Below, one piece after another: positions 21,342 to 59,513 of a DNA stretch of 60,068 bases. Under the pieces are notes generated by a model. That model made no database searches. It saw only the letters and a list, made by a program, of their open reading frames with translations, and was not told the DNA's origin. How positions within the stretch are numbered: the first letter of the stretch is position 1; every line of letters starts with the position of its first letter. This DNA is from a phage. The stretch lies in the sequence record PZ445425.1. One strand, given 5' to 3'. Both the position numbers and the translations under genes were made by a program.

Positions 21342-21590
21342 ATGTCTGACATGACTCTTTTACCTACTAATCTCGGTGGCGACGGTTTCGGTGGTGAAGC
21401 TGGTGCGGCTGGTATCGGTGGCGCGATCGGTGGCTTAATTGGTTCCTGGATCGGTAATGGTTGGGGTGGCAATGGTGGTTGGGGTGGTCGCGGTAACTTC
21501 GCTGGTCCGGTGGAAGTGCAAGCTTCTGTTGATACCAACGCAATTCTGCAAGCTATCAACAACGGTACTCTTCAGACCATTCAGGGGTAG
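21342..21590 (+). CDS. glycine-rich protein ending at in-frame TAG
   Basis: Start ATG 21342 (RBS GGAG); GGxGG-rich sequence; stop TAG at 21588-21590 is followed by 153 further in-frame sense codons. Confidence 0.5.
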   Translation: MSDMTLLPTNLGGDGFGGEAGAAGIGGAIGGLIGSWIGNGWGGNGGWGGRGNFAGPVEVQASVDTNAILQAINNGTLQTIQG

Positions 21591-22049
21591 AACGGTACTA
21601 ACCTGACTGTTGAGCGCTCCGCTGCTTCTACCTATAACGGTATTACTCAGCAGAACACTCAGAACCTACTGGCTTCCGTTCAGGGCTTTGCTGGTCTGAA
21701 CACGCAAATCCAGGGCGGCACCAGCCAAGTGCTCGCGGCTCTGTGTAACAACGAAGCAGCTAACATTACCCGCTCCTTCCAGGCTCAGTTAGAAGCTCAG
21801 AAGTGTTGCTGCGAAACCAACCTGAACATCGAGCGTCAAGCAGAAGCTACTCGTGCTCTCCTGCGCGATCAGCACGCACAAGCGCAAGCTGTTCTGATCT
21901 GTGACCTGAAGTCCCAGTTGCAGGAAGCTCGCTTTGCAAACTCTCAGTTGGCGCAGACGGCTGGCCTTACCTGTAAAATCAATCAGGTTGAGCAGTTAGT
22001 TAACTTTAAACTGCCAACTCCTCCGACTCCTCCGACTGGCTGCTGCTAA
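21591..22049 (+). CDS. in-frame continuation after TAG (possible readthrough product or separate GTG-start ORF)
   Basis: Same frame as 21342..21590 with no stop until 22047-22049; similar N/Q/T/G-rich composition; first canonical start is GTG at 21729. Confidence 0.35.
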   Translation, partial: NGTNLTVERSAASTYNGITQQNTQNLLASVQGFAGLNTQIQGGTSQVLAALCNNEAANITRSFQAQLEAQKCCCETNLNIERQAEATRALLRDQHAQAQAVLICDLKSQLQEARFANSQLAQTAGLTCKINQVEQLVNFKLPTPPTPPTGCC

Positions 22050-51892: not shown

Positions 51893-52096
51893 ATGTCTAT
51901 TCGTAACGTTATCTGTGTAATGGTTGCAAACAATAATTTTGGTTTCGTAGAAGGTGCACAGTATAAAATGGATCTTAAAACTCGTTGCATTATTAAAGGT
52001 GAAGAGGAATGGCGTGCAGTGGTAGAAGATCGCGGCAATATCTACATCTATAGTTCTGATACAATGAAAACTATTGCCGTCTTCGAATTTAACTAA
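51893..52096 (+). CDS. hypothetical small protein
   Basis: 67-aa ORF. Confidence 0.45.
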   Translation: MSIRNVICVMVANNNFGFVEGAQYKMDLKTRCIIKGEEEWRAVVEDRGNIYIYSSDTMKTIAVFEFN

Positions 52097-52164
52097 GCTA
52101 ACTTATACAATGGGCATTAGTACAGTGCCCATTAATAAGCTAACTAATTATAACGAGGTGTATT

Positions 52165-52350
52165 ATGTCTACGAACACTGTGAAGTCTGTAAATAATAGC
52201 AACAGAACATTTAAAGTTATGTGCTATGGCGAATATATCGGAGACGTTACAGCTCCCAGCCGCATCGCTGCGGAAGACTTCGTCCGTACAGAGATGGAGC
52301 TTGGAATCGCCGATTTTGCAGACCTTATCGAACTAGTAGAGGTGTACTAA
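52165..52350 (+). CDS. hypothetical small protein
   Basis: 61-aa ORF with RBS. Confidence 0.45.
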   Translation: MSTNTVKSVNNSNRTFKVMCYGEYIGDVTAPSRIAAEDFVRTEMELGIADFADLIELVEVY

Positions 52351-52351
52351 C

Positions 52352-52495
52352 ATGTCACGCAAATACACGCTTACACGCGCACAACATGCTTTATTATTGC
52401 AGGTTATGCGCATGGAGTACGAAGAGACTACATGGGCGCAAGCTATGCAGACAGGGCGAGAGTTCTACGCGCAACTAATAGCACAAAATGCCTAG
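52352..52495 (+). CDS. hypothetical small protein (47 aa, absent from ORF track)
   Basis: ATG 1 nt after upstream stop; translated by hand. Confidence 0.35.
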   Translation: MSRKYTLTRAQHALLLQVMRMEYEETTWAQAMQTGREFYAQLIAQNA

Positions 52496-52553
52496 ACAAC
52501 ATGATCGGTCTGGTGGATACTACACACATCAACCAAACAACGGGGTAAACAAA

Positions 52554-52781
52554 ATGCGTAGTTTCAAATGTGTAAGCGTAAATGCTACTGGTAACGGTCT
52601 GTTCACGGCAGGTAATGTATATGACTTCAACATGGAAAGTTATAAAGACACAACGCTTACAGGTGTAATGTTCGGTGGCGCTCGTGTCGTTCGCTGCCAT
52701 TTAAACAAGAACACGGAAAATGAATATACCCTTATCAGTCGCTACACGGGCGAGCCGTTAGCTGTGTTCCATGCAGCTTAA
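52554..52781 (+). CDS. hypothetical small protein
   Basis: Track ORF 52488..52781 trimmed to internal ATG. Confidence 0.4.
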   Translation: MRSFKCVSVNATGNGLFTAGNVYDFNMESYKDTTLTGVMFGGARVVRCHLNKNTENEYTLISRYTGEPLAVFHAA

Positions 52782-52807
52782 GCTATAACGCACACAGCGC
52801 CGCGCTA

Positions 52808-52930
52808 GCGAGCTAATGTACATAGGTAATGGTAATGCATTAGCTCGGGCGAAACAGGCGCACAGCGTCGCACACAGCTCGCACAGCGCACACAGACCCA
52901 CGCAGGCCCAGCCGCGCGACCCGACCCATC
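52808..52930. repeat. structured GC-rich repeat region
   Basis: 10-bp inverted repeat cgagctaatg / cattagctcg enclosing tandem ggtaatg; then repeated CGCACAG / CACACAG units. Confidence 0.55.
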
Positions 52931-53248
52931 CTTTTCCAGGTACTTGGATCGCTACGCCCTGCCCTGTCTATCCTGATAGTATCCTTGTTTGAAAATCTAA
53001 CTCGTCAACTATGTTGTTGCCGACATACACACCCATCACTTTACTATCCACCTACATACATGACCCCACCTACCTTCTTTTTGAATATATTGCGCTCATC
53101 CTTTCTAAATATATGGATTTTGGTAGTAAATTCTGAGTCGTCAACGTATAATTCGTCTTGTAGTTTCTCCATAGCTACCATCTTTAAGCGGATGCAACCA
53201 ATTTCTATCAATTCACACCTGTTTTAGAGCAGCAAGGAGGAGGTATTT

Positions 53249-53500
53249 ATGTGCGACACCCGTGCAAGCGCTGCACCCAGCACCTCCAGCAATGTGGTTA
53301 CAGAGGTAAATGCAATGCGATTAGGCCCATATCGCGGGTATTATGGTCGGGCAGCATGGAATGACGCTACTCAACGGTTTGAAGGCTGGATTATCTGTCC
53401 GGAACGTGTTAAATTTCATTCCGTAAAAGAGAAAAATATCGTTCTTAATTTTCAAAAATGTGTCACTAAATATGTAGAGGAGCAAGAAGAATGCGTGTAG
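53249..53500 (+). CDS. hypothetical small protein
   Basis: 83 aa, RBS AAGGAGGAGG. Confidence 0.5.
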   Translation: MCDTRASAAPSTSSNVVTEVNAMRLGPYRGYYGRAAWNDATQRFEGWIICPERVKFHSVKEKNIVLNFQKCVTKYVEEQEECV

Positions 53501-53781
53501 AAGAGATTGTTGAAGGTAAAGAGTATCGTTTACTGACCGATATTGGTGGTGTCGGATATACTCCTGATGATGCAGCTTGTTTTAACGTCCTTCCGCAAGG
53601 CGCTATCGTAACAGTTAACAAGGTTGTTACCGATTTATACAGCGTTCATGACGGCAGATGGCCACATGCAGTTATTGTTACCTTCGGTAAAGATGGATAT
53701 GTGGATCTTGACGGCGAAGATGACGCTTACGAAGTTGCTTATACAGGTCTTGTAAGCCCCAATTTCCTGGAAGAAGTATAA
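53491..53781 (+). CDS. hypothetical protein
   Basis: 96 aa, overlaps upstream stop. Confidence 0.5.
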   Translation: MRVEEIVEGKEYRLLTDIGGVGYTPDDAACFNVLPQGAIVTVNKVVTDLYSVHDGRWPHAVIVTFGKDGYVDLDGEDDAYEVAYTGLVSPNFLEEV

Positions 53782-53832
53782 TTATCAATCTATAATGGGC
53801 TCTACGGAGCCCTTAATTATCTGGAGGTTGTT

Positions 53833-54129
53833 ATGCTTTATTTAGGAATGGACGAAACTGGACACGCAATTCCTTCTGTTAACAAAGAGACACAAGTATT
53901 TACAAACTATTATGGGTCTGCTGTCCCTGTTGAGCCCTGGGCTAACTTTATCGCTGTAGATGCAGACGGTAAAGTTCATTGCTATGACGCCAAACCTTCT
54001 TGCTATGAATCTGGTAAGCAATGGATGCTTGGCATATACGGTTTGCATGTGCGCTACTGCGGTGAAGTTGACCGTGAAGGTAGTGACTGGCGTGATACGC
54101 TAAGGGAGATTAAACATGTCCGCGGCTGA
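53833..54129 (+). CDS. hypothetical protein
   Basis: 98 aa, RBS GGAGG. Confidence 0.5.
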   Translation: MLYLGMDETGHAIPSVNKETQVFTNYYGSAVPVEPWANFIAVDADGKVHCYDAKPSCYESGKQWMLGIYGLHVRYCGEVDREGSDWRDTLREIKHVRG

Positions 54130-54205
54130 AGTTACGACATTTATAATAGCTTTTGTAATTGCTTTATTTCTTCTAGCTAAGTTAGATTTATTTATGGGGT
54201 GACTC

Positions 54206-54430
54206 ATGCGATTACTTATGGTTATTGGCGTTATAGTTGCCGCTTTCGTCATATTTGCAATTGTAGACTTTAAAGAAATGGAGCGGCAAAATTGCCAACG
54301 CACTGGTAACAGCCGTGAGGATATCATTTGGCAATATATTTACGATGCAAAAGGTAATGTTATGTCAATGTATCCTCAGGTTATTACTGAGTATGAATAT
54401 AAATGCAATGACCGTAACAGGTGGAGATAA
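54206..54430 (+). CDS. small membrane protein
   Basis: 74 aa with N-terminal transmembrane helix. Confidence 0.45.
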   Translation: MRLLMVIGVIVAAFVIFAIVDFKEMERQNCQRTGNSREDIIWQYIYDAKGNVMSMYPQVITEYEYKCNDRNRWR

Positions 54431-54432
54431 TA

Positions 54433-54540
54433 ATGGAAGTTACTGAAGCTGCTAAACGCATGGTAAAATTCTATGTCGGTTCTGATGCACCTTTAATTCG
54501 CGCTTTTGGTCAGGAACTTTATGTTTTCCAGGGCGATTGA
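54433..54540 (+). CDS. small ORF ending at in-frame TGA
   Basis: 35 codons; stop TGA is immediately followed by GAGGAGG and 124 further in-frame sense codons. Confidence 0.3.
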   Translation: MEVTEAAKRMVKFYVGSDAPLIRAFGQELYVFQGD

Positions 54541-54912
54541 GAGGAGGCTGAAGAAATTGCTCAGGCAATCCTCGATCTGCAAGCAAAAGCGGATCGTGCG
54601 GAAGCCCTTGAAGCCGAATGGCGTGCTCAGGAAGAACGTGCCGAAAATGCTGAAACTAACCTTGTCGACATGCGTGCTGCTGAGCACGCTCTATCTGATT
54701 CTTATATTCGTTTGCGTCAAATTGTTGGTGCAATGAATCCGCCTGGTGTGAGCAGCGAAGAGGTGTGGGCGCATACCGAGAAGAAGGCTCAAGAGTTGCG
54801 TGATCGCTGCGAAGCTCTGGAAGCTATAGCAAAGGACTTCTTGCGTCGTAATAAATATGGTCCTTTGTTCTATCGTGATTTGTATAACCGTTTTAAGGAG
54901 ATTGTGAAATGA
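54541..54912 (+). CDS. acidic coiled-coil protein (start uncertain: ATT 54556, ATG 54670, or readthrough)
   Basis: Frame open from 54541; coiled-coil-like EEAEE...AEALEAEWRAQEERAE sequence continues across ATG 54670; stop overlaps next start (ATGA). Confidence 0.4.
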   Translation, partial: EEAEEIAQAILDLQAKADRAEALEAEWRAQEERAENAETNLVDMRAAEHALSDSYIRLRQIVGAMNPPGVSSEEVWAHTEKKAQELRDRCEALEAIAKDFLRRNKYGPLFYRDLYNRFKEIVK

Positions 54913-55178
54913 TTACTGCTCAAGAAGCTCGTGAATTAAGCGATAAGCTGGATATTAGCGAAGATATTGAATTTATCAGTGACAGCATTCGCGTAGCTGC
55001 TACAAAGGGATACAATAAAGTATCACTGGTGACCAAATACGGCGCTGTTGGCAATCCTGACACTCAAGACCCAACCACTATGAAGATTGCTAAATGGTTA
55101 GCCGATTCTGGTTTTACGGTGCTATATTATCCTTCCATGGACCAACGTGATAACGAGCGTACTGAGGTGGCATGGTGA
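54909..55178 (+). CDS. hypothetical protein
   Basis: 89-aa ORF. Confidence 0.45.
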   Translation: MITAQEARELSDKLDISEDIEFISDSIRVAATKGYNKVSLVTKYGAVGNPDTQDPTTMKIAKWLADSGFTVLYYPSMDQRDNERTEVAW

Positions 55179-55245
55179 TTGAAGAAAATATCAAATATTG
55201 GAAAGGCTTTATTGACGAAATGTTGAAACCATTGGAGAAGAAATA

Positions 55246-55638
55246 ATGCGATTAGTCGTCACCGGAGGTCGAGATTTTAAGCATGTGGAGTATATTTATG
55301 CTCAATTGGATAAGCTGCATATGCAAAGAAGGATAACCACACTTCGCCACGGTGACGCTGACGGTGTTGACCGGATTTGCGCACATTGGGCGGAGCGCAA
55401 CGGTATTAAGACAGAAGCGTTCCCTGCCCCGTGGGACAATCTTTCCTTACCAAATACCAAGATACGGTATAACGCCAAGGGTGCTTATAATGCACAAGCT
55501 GGCGCTTACCGCAATCAATTAATGCTGGATACCGATCCTAAACCGGATCACGCTATTGTGTTTCCTGGCGGAGCTGGTACTATGGATATGTACAGACGGA
55601 TTAAAGCATCCGGTATTCCTTACACTTTAGCGGAGTAA
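55246..55638 (+). CDS. Rossmann-like protein, possibly SLOG/DUF2493-like
   Basis: N-terminal VVTGGRDF Gly-rich loop and GDADGVD motif; weak assignment. Confidence 0.3.
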   Translation: MRLVVTGGRDFKHVEYIYAQLDKLHMQRRITTLRHGDADGVDRICAHWAERNGIKTEAFPAPWDNLSLPNTKIRYNAKGAYNAQAGAYRNQLMLDTDPKPDHAIVFPGGAGTMDMYRRIKASGIPYTLAE

Positions 55639-55641
55639 ATA

Positions 55642-56112
55642 ATGGCTGACGTTAAAACTATTGTTGATGCAATGGACGAATCCAAAGACTGCCAACTGAA
55701 GAAGTCGTTTGAAGTAAAACAGGTTACAGAGACTCAGTTGGTTTGCAATTTTGCGCGTTATTGTGGACTGGGGCGCGGGAAAGACTGGAACGGGCTTATT
55801 GTTATGCCCACATCACAGATCCTCGTTTACGTCCGCAACGTTGTAGAAGATGTTCTGCGTCTTCAGGTTGAAATCGGTGACGTAGAAATTAACATGACCG
55901 CGAGCTCTACCATTGTGGTTAAATGGCAGTCGGGCGAGACACTGCGTTTGGAAGCGTGCCATTGTGCTAAGAGCCTACACCACCTGCGCGGTTGTCATTA
56001 CCAGTTCGTTGGGTTTGTACATCCGCAAGGGTTAAGCGAGCGTACGGCGCTGGTAGCGCGTTTGCTGCTGCGTCCTTATAATAACGAGCCGGAAGTTATA
56101 TACGAGGCATAA
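55642..56112 (+). CDS. hypothetical protein
   Basis: 156-aa ORF. Confidence 0.45.
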   Translation: MADVKTIVDAMDESKDCQLKKSFEVKQVTETQLVCNFARYCGLGRGKDWNGLIVMPTSQILVYVRNVVEDVLRLQVEIGDVEINMTASSTIVVKWQSGETLRLEACHCAKSLHHLRGCHYQFVGFVHPQGLSERTALVARLLLRPYNNEPEVIYEA

Positions 56113-56113
56113 A

Positions 56114-56539
56114 ATGTCAGTAAATTTTGTCAAACAGCCAACTTTAAATACATGCGTTTCTGCGTGTTTGGCAATGATCCTTAATAAACCTGTTGAGAAG
56201 GTCATTGAGGAATTTCACAGTCGTTATTATAACAACTGGGAAATCACTATCAGCGAATATTTGACTAAAAATGGCGTCCAGCATCATTGTTCAGAAGGTG
56301 GTGGGCGTGAAACTTTGCATATGGGAGGTTTATTCCTGTGCACGGTGCCAAGTCTTAATATTCCTGGCGCATTGCACCAGATTGTGATTGATATGACGGA
56401 TCACAAGTTTATTGTGCATGATCCAATTAAAGGATGGGAAGGTAAAAAGTTCTATGTTGGTCCGGATCAAGATCCTGAGGAACCTGGAGCTTTTATCATT
56501 CATACTTGGGTCAAAGACGTTGAAATCCTGCCTTATTAA
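56114..56539 (+). CDS. papain-like cysteine peptidase (C39-like)
   Basis: QPTLNTCVSACLAMIL closely matches the C39 Q...C...ACLAMIL motif; downstream HQIVID His candidate. Confidence 0.5.
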   Translation: MSVNFVKQPTLNTCVSACLAMILNKPVEKVIEEFHSRYYNNWEITISEYLTKNGVQHHCSEGGGRETLHMGGLFLCTVPSLNIPGALHQIVIDMTDHKFIVHDPIKGWEGKKFYVGPDQDPEEPGAFIIHTWVKDVEILPY

Positions 56540-56601
56540 TTTTCTTGCTATCACATAACCCTTCATTGTATTGTGTACCCATCGAATAAGAGGGGTACAC
56601 A

Positions 56602-56787
56602 ATGACCAAACTATACGCCGGATTGTTTTTATTTGCGACGTTAATGTTCGCTGGACTTTATACCTATACAGTAGTCGAACAACCTTCCACGGTTATCCGA
56701 ATCTTTGCAAGTACAGGGCTTTGCATCTGTCTTATTCTATTTGTTTTATGCATTGTTATTATCCAAGACCAAAGGAAAGTTAAATGA
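56602..56787 (+). CDS. small membrane protein
   Basis: 61 aa with two hydrophobic helices; start codon follows a hairpin gtgtaccc...gggtacac. Confidence 0.45.
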   Translation: MTKLYAGLFLFATLMFAGLYTYTVVEQPSTVIRIFASTGLCICLILFVLCIVIIQDQRKVK

Positions 56788-57254
56788 CTGAAGAATGGAA
56801 AAGAATACCTTTATTTCCAAAGTATGAGGTTTCTACTTTAGGTAGAGTTAGGAGGGCTAACAACCACAAAATATTGACAGGCTGCATATTAGATGGTCGT
56901 AGACGTTATACTTTGCGTCACAATGGTAAGAAATACGGTGTTGATGCTGCAAGATTGATGTGTTACGCATTTCGTGGTCTTGTCGACGGTTATGAGAAAC
57001 TAGATGCACGACATCTTGATGGCAATCCTTTGAATAATGTATTATCTAACGTAGATTGGGGTACACGTAAGGATAACATGGTGGACATGGTTCATCATGG
57101 TAACGCTTGTCATTCGTTTACAAAGGAAGAAGTTCTAAGTATCCGGCAACGAGCAGATGCCGGGGAAAGTCAACACGCTATAGCAAGAAGTATTGGCAGA
57201 AGCGTATCCGTTGTTAACTGTATTGTATTAAGAAAGACTTATAACGAATATTAA
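56784..57254 (+). CDS. HNH homing endonuclease
   Basis: NUMOD4-like N-terminus (WKRIPLFPKYEVSTLGRV), HNH core HLDGNPLNN and C-terminal HTH-like segment. Confidence 0.7.
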   Translation: MTEEWKRIPLFPKYEVSTLGRVRRANNHKILTGCILDGRRRYTLRHNGKKYGVDAARLMCYAFRGLVDGYEKLDARHLDGNPLNNVLSNVDWGTRKDNMVDMVHHGNACHSFTKEEVLSIRQRADAGESQHAIARSIGRSVSVVNCIVLRKTYNEY

Positions 57255-57266
57255 TGGGGGTGGGTT

Positions 57267-57731
57267 ATCACTACTATTGCGTTCGATGGAAAAGTATTAG
57301 CTGCGGACCGTGGAGTTATGCGCGGGGAAGCTGTGACTGCTTATAAGAAAGTTCATAGCGTAAATGGACATCGTGGACGGTTTTTACTTGGCTTGTGCGG
57401 TTTGACGGCATTTACCGATCAGGTGTTGCGTTATTTTAATAGCGCGGAACCTGTTAAGTTCCCTGATATTAAACTTTACAGTAAAGATGATGATTACGGG
57501 CAAACTTGCGGTCTTGCTGTCACTCCGGAAGGTACTTGCCATTTTATTTATAATGATGGTACTTTGAGCGAGCCCATGCTGGATGGATGGGGATCTGAGG
57601 GTAGCGGTTGTGTGTTTGCCGCTGGTGCATTAGCCGCTGGTGCAAGCGCAAGCGAAGCTATTGAGCTGGCAATTAAACACACCACATGCGCATTCCTGGG
57701 AGTTGATACAATATCATTTGAGGGTTTTTAA
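57267..57731 (+). CDS. HslV/proteasome-beta-like Ntn-hydrolase peptidase, apparent non-AUG start
   Basis: Frame open from 57255; TTIAFDGKVLAAD, YKKV and GSEGSG segments align with HslV; no in-frame ATG/GTG/TTG precedes the catalytic Thr; ATC at 57267 follows a G-rich SD-like tract. Confidence 0.5.
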   Translation: MTTIAFDGKVLAADRGVMRGEAVTAYKKVHSVNGHRGRFLLGLCGLTAFTDQVLRYFNSAEPVKFPDIKLYSKDDDYGQTCGLAVTPEGTCHFIYNDGTLSEPMLDGWGSEGSGCVFAAGALAAGASASEAIELAIKHTTCAFLGVDTISFEGF

Positions 57732-57992
57732 ATGACTACATTCAGTCACCTGATCCCACCTGCTTATCATAGTAAGGTAGTTGACCACGGGACGCATGTT
57801 GTAATTGGTGGCGAAATCTTTATCACAGATAACGAGGAAATCGCCATTGCAATTATTGACAGCACTCAGCATGACTTTATGGTTATCCTGCAACACGAAC
57901 CCGATAACTTCACTTTTTACTCCAGCTACGGGGTCGATAAAGGTGGAAAAGGTCTTGTTGGCTGGTACATTAGCGAGTGGTTTGACGGGTAA
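57732..57992 (+). CDS. hypothetical protein
   Basis: 86-aa ORF starting immediately after HslV-like stop. Confidence 0.45.
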   Translation: MTTFSHLIPPAYHSKVVDHGTHVVIGGEIFITDNEEIAIAIIDSTQHDFMVILQHEPDNFTFYSSYGVDKGGKGLVGWYISEWFDG

Positions 57993-58074
57993 TTTTCTTA
58001 GATCAATTCTCCTTGCGCCGTATCAAGTTTCTCTGTTACCCTTGAGTGGTTCATGTCAAGCGGAGGAACTCGAT

Positions 58075-58512
58075 ATGGCACTTCAACCTCGTGGTATTCG
58101 TAATAACAATCCAGGCAATATTCGCTGGGGTGATAATTGGCAGGGCTTAGTTCCTGCTGATAAGCGAACCGATAAATCTTTTGCTCAATTCACGCAACCG
58201 ATTTACGGCATTCGTGCGCTAGCGAAAATCCTGACAAACTACACCAAACGTGAAGGCTTGCCCCATGTGGGTAAGAAAAACATCGACACTGTACGTGAAA
58301 TTATCGCTCGCTGGGCACCGCCTAACGAAAACGATACGGAAGCGTATATTCGCTCTGTTGCCAAAGCAATTGGTGTTCAACCTAACGATCCAATTAATGT
58401 CTTCGACAAGGCAATTATGTCAGGATTGGTGAAAGCAATCATTCGTCATGAAAATGGCATGATGCCCTATACCGATGACGTAATTAACCGCGCTATTGCA
58501 ATGGTACTTTAA
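58075..58512 (+). CDS. putative endolysin
   Basis: Track ORF 57805..58512 trimmed to ATG 58075 (RBS GGAGGA); first gene of holin-spanin cassette; conserved-looking GIRNNNPGNIRWG segment; enzymatic class unknown. Confidence 0.4.
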   Translation: MALQPRGIRNNNPGNIRWGDNWQGLVPADKRTDKSFAQFTQPIYGIRALAKILTNYTKREGLPHVGKKNIDTVREIIARWAPPNENDTEAYIRSVAKAIGVQPNDPINVFDKAIMSGLVKAIIRHENGMMPYTDDVINRAIAMVL

Positions 58513-58515
58513 CTG

Positions 58516-58539
58516 ACGGGGCGTTAGCCCCTTTTATTT
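58516..58539 (+). terminator. terminator-like hairpin
   Basis: ggggc-gtta-gcccc followed by TTTTATTT. Confidence 0.6.
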
Positions 58540-58548
58540 GGAGGGAAC

Positions 58549-58893
58549 ATGTTCAATTCACCCAACGAACATTGGACAGTTCTAGCGGGGTTTGCGTTTA
58601 TCTCCCTCATTGGGGGAGCTCTCGGTTATGTCATGCGTACAATAGACGCTGGTAAGAAAGTACGGGCAAGCATTGCGTTTCTTGAAGGCTTATCCGCCGC
58701 TTTCTTTGGCGTTATAATGTATGCGATCTACAGGGAGTTTAACATCAGCCTTTGGTTCGCTTTTGGCCTTGCTGGCCTATTTGCTTGGGCAGGTTCACGT
58801 GCTACGCTAAAAGCCCTAACGTCGCTTATAGCTTCACGGACAGGGATCAAACTCGATTCAGGGGACTGCAAACATGAAAACGATTCTAAATAA
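58549..58893 (+). CDS. holin (putative, three transmembrane helices)
   Basis: 114 aa with three hydrophobic helices and charged C-terminus, adjacent to spanins. Confidence 0.5.
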   Translation: MFNSPNEHWTVLAGFAFISLIGGALGYVMRTIDAGKKVRASIAFLEGLSAAFFGVIMYAIYREFNISLWFAFGLAGLFAWAGSRATLKALTSLIASRTGIKLDSGDCKHENDSK

Positions 58894-59350
58894 CTTCTTC
58901 AGTTTTATAAAAACTAAACCGCGTCTGTTTATCGAGTATTTGATGATCGGCGCGGTTGTGTTTTTATGCGGGGTGGCTGCATACTTGTGGTCACAGAACG
59001 AGCTCAGCAAAACTAATTTAAATCATGCTGAGCAAAGACTAACCGTTGTAGAACGGGACAATGCAAAGCTGGGCGAAGCTGTTGTATTTCTTGCATCCCA
59101 ACGGGAGAAGGATACTGAATCCTACCGAAAATTGGCTTCAGCAATTGAAAGTGAGCAACATAACCACAGGTTGCTTCAGGACAAATTAAAAGCACTGGAG
59201 AAAAGCAATGCCGACGTCAAAGCTTATCTTAATGAGCGTGTTCCTGATGATTTGCGCAGGCTGCTCGACGGAGATACAACCTCCACCACCGCCGCAGATA
59301 GTGAAGATAAAACTTCCGGCCCATCTGTTGGTAGAATGTCGGGAAGTTGA
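58874..59350 (+). CDS. i-spanin (Rz-like)
   Basis: N-terminal transmembrane helix followed by coiled-coil periplasmic domain; contains the embedded o-spanin start. Confidence 0.6.
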   Translation: MKTILNNFFSFIKTKPRLFIEYLMIGAVVFLCGVAAYLWSQNELSKTNLNHAEQRLTVVERDNAKLGEAVVFLASQREKDTESYRKLASAIESEQHNHRLLQDKLKALEKSNADVKAYLNERVPDDLRRLLDGDTTSTTAADSEDKTSGPSVGRMSGS

Positions 59351-59513
59351 TAAATATCCTTTGGTTTATACAAGGGACATTATCCAACGTTTGCAGGATA
59401 CAGAAACAGCTCTGACTGAATGTAAACTGAGGGTTAAGGAAATCATACGCTATGAAGCTGAAAATGTTTCGCTTGATTTTGTAGGATCAAGCAATTATAT
59501 TCAGCCTAAATAG
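59208..59513 (+). CDS. o-spanin (Rz1-like lipoprotein), overlapping i-spanin in another frame
   Basis: Signal peptide with lipobox-like ICAGC, proline-rich mature region; classic overlapped Rz/Rz1 architecture. Confidence 0.6.
   Translation: MPTSKLILMSVFLMICAGCSTEIQPPPPPQIVKIKLPAHLLVECREVDKYPLVYTRDIIQRLQDTETALTECKLRVKEIIRYEAENVSLDFVGSSNYIQPK

Follow-up and report, generated by a model that had tools for sequence, protein, structure and literature searches.

A stand-alone C39-like cysteine peptidase in a virulent Seuratvirus: a conserved active site, a sporadic distribution and a candidate host-directed role

What use does a phage have for a C39 peptidase that stands apart from any exporter? 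C39 peptidases have long been seen as leader-peptide clippers attached to exporters, and in 2025–2026 free C39 domains were shown to be toxins that cut folded topoisomerase subunits. The question is raised by a gene of 141 codons in the phage sequence PZ445425.1, a stretch of 60,068 nucleotides that was analysed as a whole and is called the window below. Its product had been proposed, from the sequence alone, to be a stand-alone C39-like peptidase acting either on a phage peptide or on a host protein. We confirmed that it is a stand-alone C39-like cysteine peptidase of the papain fold in which the catalytic Gln, Cys, His and Asp are all present. It is no leader peptidase coupled to a transporter, and host-protein cleavage or counter-defence, a plausible candidate role, fits the evidence better than a phage-peptide substrate.

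The open reading frame (ORF) was found exactly as first called, at 56114..56539 on the plus strand, with an ATG start, 141 codons and the motif QPTLNTCVSACLAMIL at residues 8–23. The upstream gene (55642..56112, 156 codons) ends in a stop codon at 56110-56112, only one base ahead of the peptidase ATG; the peptidase gene therefore belongs to a co-oriented array and, judged from this spacing, is probably co-transcribed and translationally coupled with that gene. A promoter and terminator scan of positions 52000-59500 gave no signal above shuffle expectation. The ratio of nonsynonymous to synonymous substitution rates (dN/dS) was 0.07–0.08 against orthologues of 85% amino-acid identity, with dS saturated at 1.3–1.5, and on this ratio the ORF is a real gene under strong purifying selection. 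The source phage is a virulent Seuratvirus (Queuovirinae) whose region is 96–98% identical to those of CAjan and Seurat; the CAjan orthologue, gp84, is annotated as 'hypothetical protein'. The same protein is encoded by BASEL phages, being 100% identical in GottfriedDienst and 96% identical in KurtStettler.

Its relation to C39 peptidases was assessed by profile and structure comparison. The protein belongs to PHROG 4049, a family without assigned function, which it matches over its full length (E 9.4e-58, 195 bits, residues 2–140 on profile positions 2–140 of 145). Against the Pfam C39 model PF03412 it scored 14.3 bits (E 0.037), below the curated gathering score of 22 and over residues 3–25 only, and the motif by itself is marginal evidence for C39. 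No significant match was obtained among PDB sequences, whether the query was the protein alone or either of two family profiles; LahT150 was reached at E 0.87 only, yet it aligned over the full length with the catalytic tetrad paired. An hhalign comparison of the family profile with a single LahT fragment returned 70% probability over the N-terminal motif only and was superseded by a profile-profile run, in which an alignment of 113 family sequences was set against 20 LahT-type C39 domains, all with PF03412. This run gave 93% probability (E 3.5e-07, 104 columns) and paired Q8, C14, H88 and D103 with LahT150 Q21, C27, H101 and D117, which are invariant across the 20 domains. PF03412 was itself matched by 32 of the 113 relatives at E<=0.1 (best 2.4e-06). 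The protein has a papain-like alpha+beta fold, and its nearest structural neighbours are C39 domains. Homology to C39 is thus very probable, and the assignment is made because three independent lines agree, profile-profile homology and residue conservation among them.

Conservation of the predicted active site was counted over 157 representatives, mostly 30–40% identical to the query (Table 1). The Gln/Cys signature noticed at the outset was upheld, with Q8 in 152 and C14 in 153 of them, three of the exceptions at each position being alignment gaps. The downstream His, at first only a candidate, proved to be H88, which is present in all 157. The proline of the DPxxG motif, P104, is kept in 156 and pairs with LahT150 P118, and the predicted residues follow the order Q-C-H-D with the spacing typical of C39. 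Cys14 lies at the N-terminus of a helix spanning residues 14–23, and the second conserved cysteine, Cys18, shows the same C+4 spacing as Cys187 of StbD-CT, a C39 toxin in which Gln177, the equivalent of Gln8, touches the substrate. By this comparison Cys14 would be the nucleophile and His88 the base, Asp103 would orient the histidine and Gln8 would form the oxyanion hole. The initial annotation had named a non-peptidase fold or the lack of a catalytic His as grounds for giving up the assignment, and neither was found. An enzyme of the same fold could also modify its target by means other than proteolysis, as a deamidase, an acyl- or transglutaminase-type transferase or a phytochelatin-synthase-like protein. 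We regard this as improbable, given that the closest relatives by structure and by profile are true C39 endopeptidases and that the family retains both the oxyanion Gln and the DPxxG motif of C39.

The phage peptidase was compared with several groups of characterised proteins. The C39 domains of PCAT1, ComA-PEP and LahT150 (PF03412) belong to PCAT/AMS ATP-binding cassette (ABC) transporters, whereas the phage protein is neither fused nor adjacent to such an exporter nor in an operon with one, has no double-glycine leader gene nearby to serve as a substrate and occurs in variable accessory-gene contexts. It therefore departs from classical C39 peptidases in two respects, the curated Pfam threshold and the association with a transporter and a leader peptide. 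Cpe1, delivered by a type VI secretion system (PDB 9l5u), and StbD-CT, delivered by contact-dependent inhibition (PDB 8ssm/8ssk), are stand-alone C39 toxins that cleave GyrB/ParE. Together with EvpQ and TsaP they share with the phage peptidase a C39-type domain with a Cys-His-Asp triad, but they come with a delivery module (PAAR, VgrG, Rhs or CdiA) and an adjacent cognate immunity gene, neither of which accompanies the phage gene; it has no N-terminal extension, the catalytic Gln being residue 8, and its downstream gene varies between lineages. Peptidase_C39_2 (PF13529; for example B. anthracis 3erv) was reached by only 1 of the 113 relatives, at E 0.04, and single-domain C39-like proteins of this family have extra structural decorations and are still linked to transporter genes (PMC10318531). 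Cell-wall endoisopeptidases of phages or archaea, of the PeiW/PeiR type, combine a catalytic papain-like domain with wall-binding repeats and with export or a place in a lysis cassette, a combination that the phage peptidase does not show.

We then asked how widely the family is distributed. A profile search run exhaustively over 1.84 billion cluster representatives recovered 825 relatives at E<=1e-3 and 503 at E<=1e-10, each of the 825 being a representative cluster at 50% identity. Among the 150 relatives listed, nearly all are 130–180 aa long; the few that exceed this length have unrelated extensions, and two of these extensions resemble MazG by eye. Neither a precomputed Pfam domain nor an informative name was attached to any of 64 relatives from an annotated database, and a fold search of BFVD matched uncharacterised family members only. 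A relative is encoded in 196 of 50,697 phage records, including those of Seuratvirus, Nonagvirus, Vibrio Queuovirinae, Kuttervirus/Ackermannviridae, Vequintavirinae (Certrevirus, Henunavirus, Mydovirus), Pseudomonas Samunavirus, phiVC8-like Vibrio podophages and some jumbo phages. Prophage copies were found at 7 loci in Pseudomonas and Serratia genomes by a profile search of genome contigs. Non-canonical DNA is known from several of these lineages (7-deazaguanines in Queuovirinae, hypermodified thymidine in Ackermannviridae, 2-aminoadenine in phiVC8-like phages); as the family is present in lambdoid prophages too, the overlap may be coincidental. The labels of relatives are nearly all 'hypothetical', the exceptions seen being 'papain-like cysteine protease', 'peptidase C39 family protein' and 'T3SS chaperone' (type III secretion system), one each. 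The fold assignment itself is therefore not new, as a few automated annotations already give 'C39' or 'papain-like'; the present analysis adds that the family is broad, that its active site is intact, that it behaves as an accessory gene and that the leader-peptide model is to be rejected. A literature search found no experimental work on the phage family, and a preprint on a screen of phage accessory genes does not mention it.

When the genomic surroundings were compared, all-against-all clustering of neighbouring ORFs from 80 viral loci, with representatives scanned against Pfam, revealed no conserved partner gene and recovered only lineage-specific modules of nin-region genes. Lambdoid nin-type regions harbour most of the metagenomic and prophage copies, with replication genes (DnaT-like, DnaB, IstB/DnaC-like) on one side and NinB, NinG, Rha, Ead/Ea22 and a dATP/dGTP pyrophosphohydrolase on the other. 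At other loci the peptidase gene comes after a DNA polymerase A gene, between the genes for terminase and portal or ahead of a lysis cassette, and in Vequintavirinae, Samunavirus and Vibrio Queuovirinae it is embedded in long stretches of small hypothetical genes.

These data bear directly on the classical function, in which the enzyme would mature a phage double-glycine peptide such as the Gly-rich product at 21342 suggested by the initial annotation. C39 homology, the conserved tetrad and a GG at residues 12–13 of that ORF speak for such a role, but the substrate did not withstand analysis. The Gly-rich ORF matches only positions 1–80 of the 234-position phrog_9288 profile, and an ORF at 21729 in the same frame matches positions 129–233. 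In phage slur01 both parts form a single coding sequence (CDS) of 235 aa, gp61, directly after the tail-fibre gene, and where slur01 has CAG the window has TAG. The product at 21342 is thus, as read from the two sequences, the N-terminal 82 residues of a larger, amber-interrupted protein and not a bacteriocin-like peptide; beyond the TAG the frame is unbroken to 22049, and the protein runs from a Gly-rich N-terminus to a C-terminal end ...TPPTPPTGCC. The TAG itself may be an amber mutation, the mark of a pseudogene or a sequencing error. At −4 and −6, double-glycine leaders carry hydrophobic residues compatible with a helix. With Asn at the first of these positions and Pro at the second, the N-terminus MSDMTLLPTNLGG appears to be a poor double-glycine leader. 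The two families also differ in organism distribution: phrog_9288 comes mainly from phages of Salmonella, Escherichia and Yersinia, T5-like phages and 50-kb siphoviruses among them, while the peptidase family adds 53 Vibrio and 18 Pseudomonas records, a difference that largely refutes the pairing. A heuristic scan for the GG-leader pattern found no full match at any ORF start in the window, which also contains no ABC transporter anywhere, and across about 100 related loci the peptidase has no conserved transporter or peptide gene as a neighbour in any lineage. The Gly-rich ORF was accordingly rejected as a substrate, and maturation of a phage peptide in general is highly improbable.

The same comparison speaks to a lysis or cell-wall accessory role, in which the enzyme, like PeiR/PeiW, would act on peptidoglycan as an endo- or isopeptidase. 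In the window and in Nonagvirus 9g the peptidase gene lies upstream of an HslV-like gene and the lysis cassette. The protein, however, has no signal peptide, signal-arrest-release or transmembrane segment or wall-binding domain, its catalytic residues beginning at position 8; other lineages place the gene near replication, nin or structural genes; and the phage already encodes an endolysin, a holin and a spanin. We consider a function at the cell wall hardly credible.

A further association was seen in Salmonella phage Marshall and related Kutterviruses, in which the peptidase gene lies between two phage topoisomerase II subunit genes with overlapping stop and start codons (L094:1059-4745). 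This arrangement recalls the C39 interbacterial toxins of the Cpe1/StbD-CT type, which cleave GyrB/ParE between LHAGG and KF. The phage enzyme might likewise cut host GyrB and/or ParE in the Gly-Gly motif of the ATP lid, a specific form of the host-target model that would shut down host chromosome topology. A search of the junction found the peptidase gene between the large and medium topoisomerase II subunit genes in only 39 of 283 Ackermannviridae records. In the remainder (Cba120, Det7, Vi01 and others) the topoisomerase genes are directly adjacent, with flanks about 76–97% identical, and Dickeya phage phiDP10.3 has an AP2-domain gene in the same slot. With so few junctions occupied, the adjacency is an insertion polymorphism in a hotspot, and it was rejected as guilt by association for a GyrB-type target. 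The junction is weak evidence for a topoisomerase link and good evidence that the gene is mobile and dispensable, the latter for one lineage at least. The Kuttervirus topoisomerase II has LYAGSNF where GyrB carries its cleavage motif, and the window contains no topoisomerase II homologue. Lambdoid phages depend on host gyrase. Overall, killing through a type II topoisomerase seems unlikely.

Counter-defence could also take the form of deconjugation, with the enzyme stripping a Gly-ending ubiquitin-like protein, as in Bil-type tail-fibre conjugates or the Cap2-primed CD-NTases of the type II cyclic-oligonucleotide-based anti-phage signalling system (CBASS), or cutting another defence protein. 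The best structural matches are C39 domains and not deubiquitinases, nothing ties the family to hosts with Bil or type II CBASS, and no such phage enzyme was found in the literature. PADLOC, too, returned no match for the peptidase, its neighbours or two distant relatives. Such an activity is quite unlikely, less so than cell-wall cleavage.

The reading that we favour, by a modest margin over even chances, is that the protein is a stand-alone cysteine endopeptidase from the C39-like branch of the papain fold, catalytically competent and located in the cytoplasm, carried as a phage accessory gene, expressed within the infected cell and acting in trans on a protein that the host encodes. This could be a housekeeping protein, cleaved in host takeover, or a component of an anti-phage system. 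The Gln and Cys at residues 8 and 14 leave no room for a signal peptide or pro-region, and hence the enzyme would be made active in the cytoplasm. A host-supplied substrate is suggested because the family spreads sporadically, as a mobile gene without partners, over unrelated phages that share only Gammaproteobacteria. The cut would fall next to small residues, and by analogy with all characterised C39 enzymes the specificity is probably of the Gly-Gly type.

Several observations weigh against this reading. The protein's own Pfam C39 score lies below the cut-off; literature searches found no biochemical or genetic data for any family member; and PADLOC shows no link to known defence systems. 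Papain-fold Cys-His-Asp enzymes include deamidases, acyltransferases and isopeptidases, and the fold does not prove backbone hydrolysis. Retention of the gene in synteny just upstream of the lysis cassette in Queuovirinae could indicate a phage-internal role: between Seuratvirus and Nonagvirus only three genes of the module are still detectable (endolysin, 64% identity; holin, 38%; peptidase, 35%), and in Vibrio phage pVco-14 the peptidase is the only one (40%). A bolder proposal, that PHROG 4049 comprises widespread phage-delivered 'intracellular C39 toxins' which act early in infection and cut a host protein at Gly-Gly, be it GyrB/ParE or a Gly-terminated ubiquitin-like conjugate, is doubtful at present.

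Table 1. Features of the window discussed in the text; residue counts refer to the 157 representatives.
Feature	Position	Strand	Remarks
phrog_9288 gene	21342..22049	+	After tail-fibre gene; in-frame TAG at 21588-21590 where slur01 has CAG
YspA/cpYpsA-related SLOG-domain protein	55246..55638	+	PF10686, E 5e-19; two genes upstream of peptidase
GAGG ribosome-binding site of peptidase gene	56104..56107	+	Read directly from the sequence
C39-like peptidase gene, 141 aa, stand-alone	56114..56539	+	PHROG 4049; orthologue of CAjan gp84
Gln8 codon, predicted oxyanion-hole residue	56135..56137	+	Q in 152/157; pairs with LahT150 Q21
Cys14 codon, predicted nucleophile	56153..56155	+	C in 153/157; pairs with LahT150 C27
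Cys18 codon, second conserved cysteine (CxxxC)	56165..56167	+	C in 142/157
His88 codon, predicted catalytic base	56375..56377	+	H in 157/157; pairs with LahT150 H101
Asp103 codon, third triad residue (predicted), in DPxxG motif	56420..56422	+	D in 156/157; pairs with LahT150 D117
RNA hairpin	56569..56604	+	-20.1 kcal/mol, z -3.6, 0/200 shuffles as stable
HNH/NUMOD4/HTH_38 homing-endonuclease-like gene	56784..57254	+	Between 61-aa membrane-protein gene and HslV-like gene
HslV-family (Ntn-hydrolase-like) protein, phrog_1040	57318..57731	+	Adjoins lysis cassette in Seuratvirus and Nonagvirus 9g

In the window, the peptidase gene is surrounded by genes for the YspA/SLOG protein, a 156-aa protein of unknown function, a 61-aa membrane protein, the HNH/NUMOD4 endonuclease and the HslV-family protein. 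SLOG domains are linked to the processing of nucleotide signals in conflict systems. The YspA/SLOG protein, labelled 'GTP-binding domain' or 'phosphoribosyl transferase' in relatives, could be another accessory or counter-defence candidate. The predicted hairpin sits in the 62-nt spacer after the peptidase gene, where the Shine-Dalgarno sequence and the AUG (56602) of the following gene are both base-paired within it and no T-run comes after it, and it may be a translational-control or RNA-stability element. The HNH/NUMOD4 gene is absent from CAjan, Seurat and most relatives, and this missing insertion accounts for the uniform 84% coverage of megablast matches. The HslV-like ORF encodes 137 aa here against a CDS of 154 aa (465 nt) in CAjan; its product, which has no Pfam match, would give this small-gene module a second peptidase.

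Taken together, free C39-like enzymes with intact active sites occur in many unrelated phages of Gammaproteobacteria, and the gene behaves as a mobile accessory gene. If a host or defence protein is cleaved, the family would represent a class of host-takeover or anti-defence factor with a new mechanism and would offer a compact sequence-specific protease tool; if not, an uncharacterised PHROG has still gained a correct functional annotation. Should its members be intracellular toxins, they would be the first protease-based host-takeover or counter-defence factors of the C39 fold in phages. The peptidase provides a cheaply testable lead into protease-based conflict between phages and their hosts.
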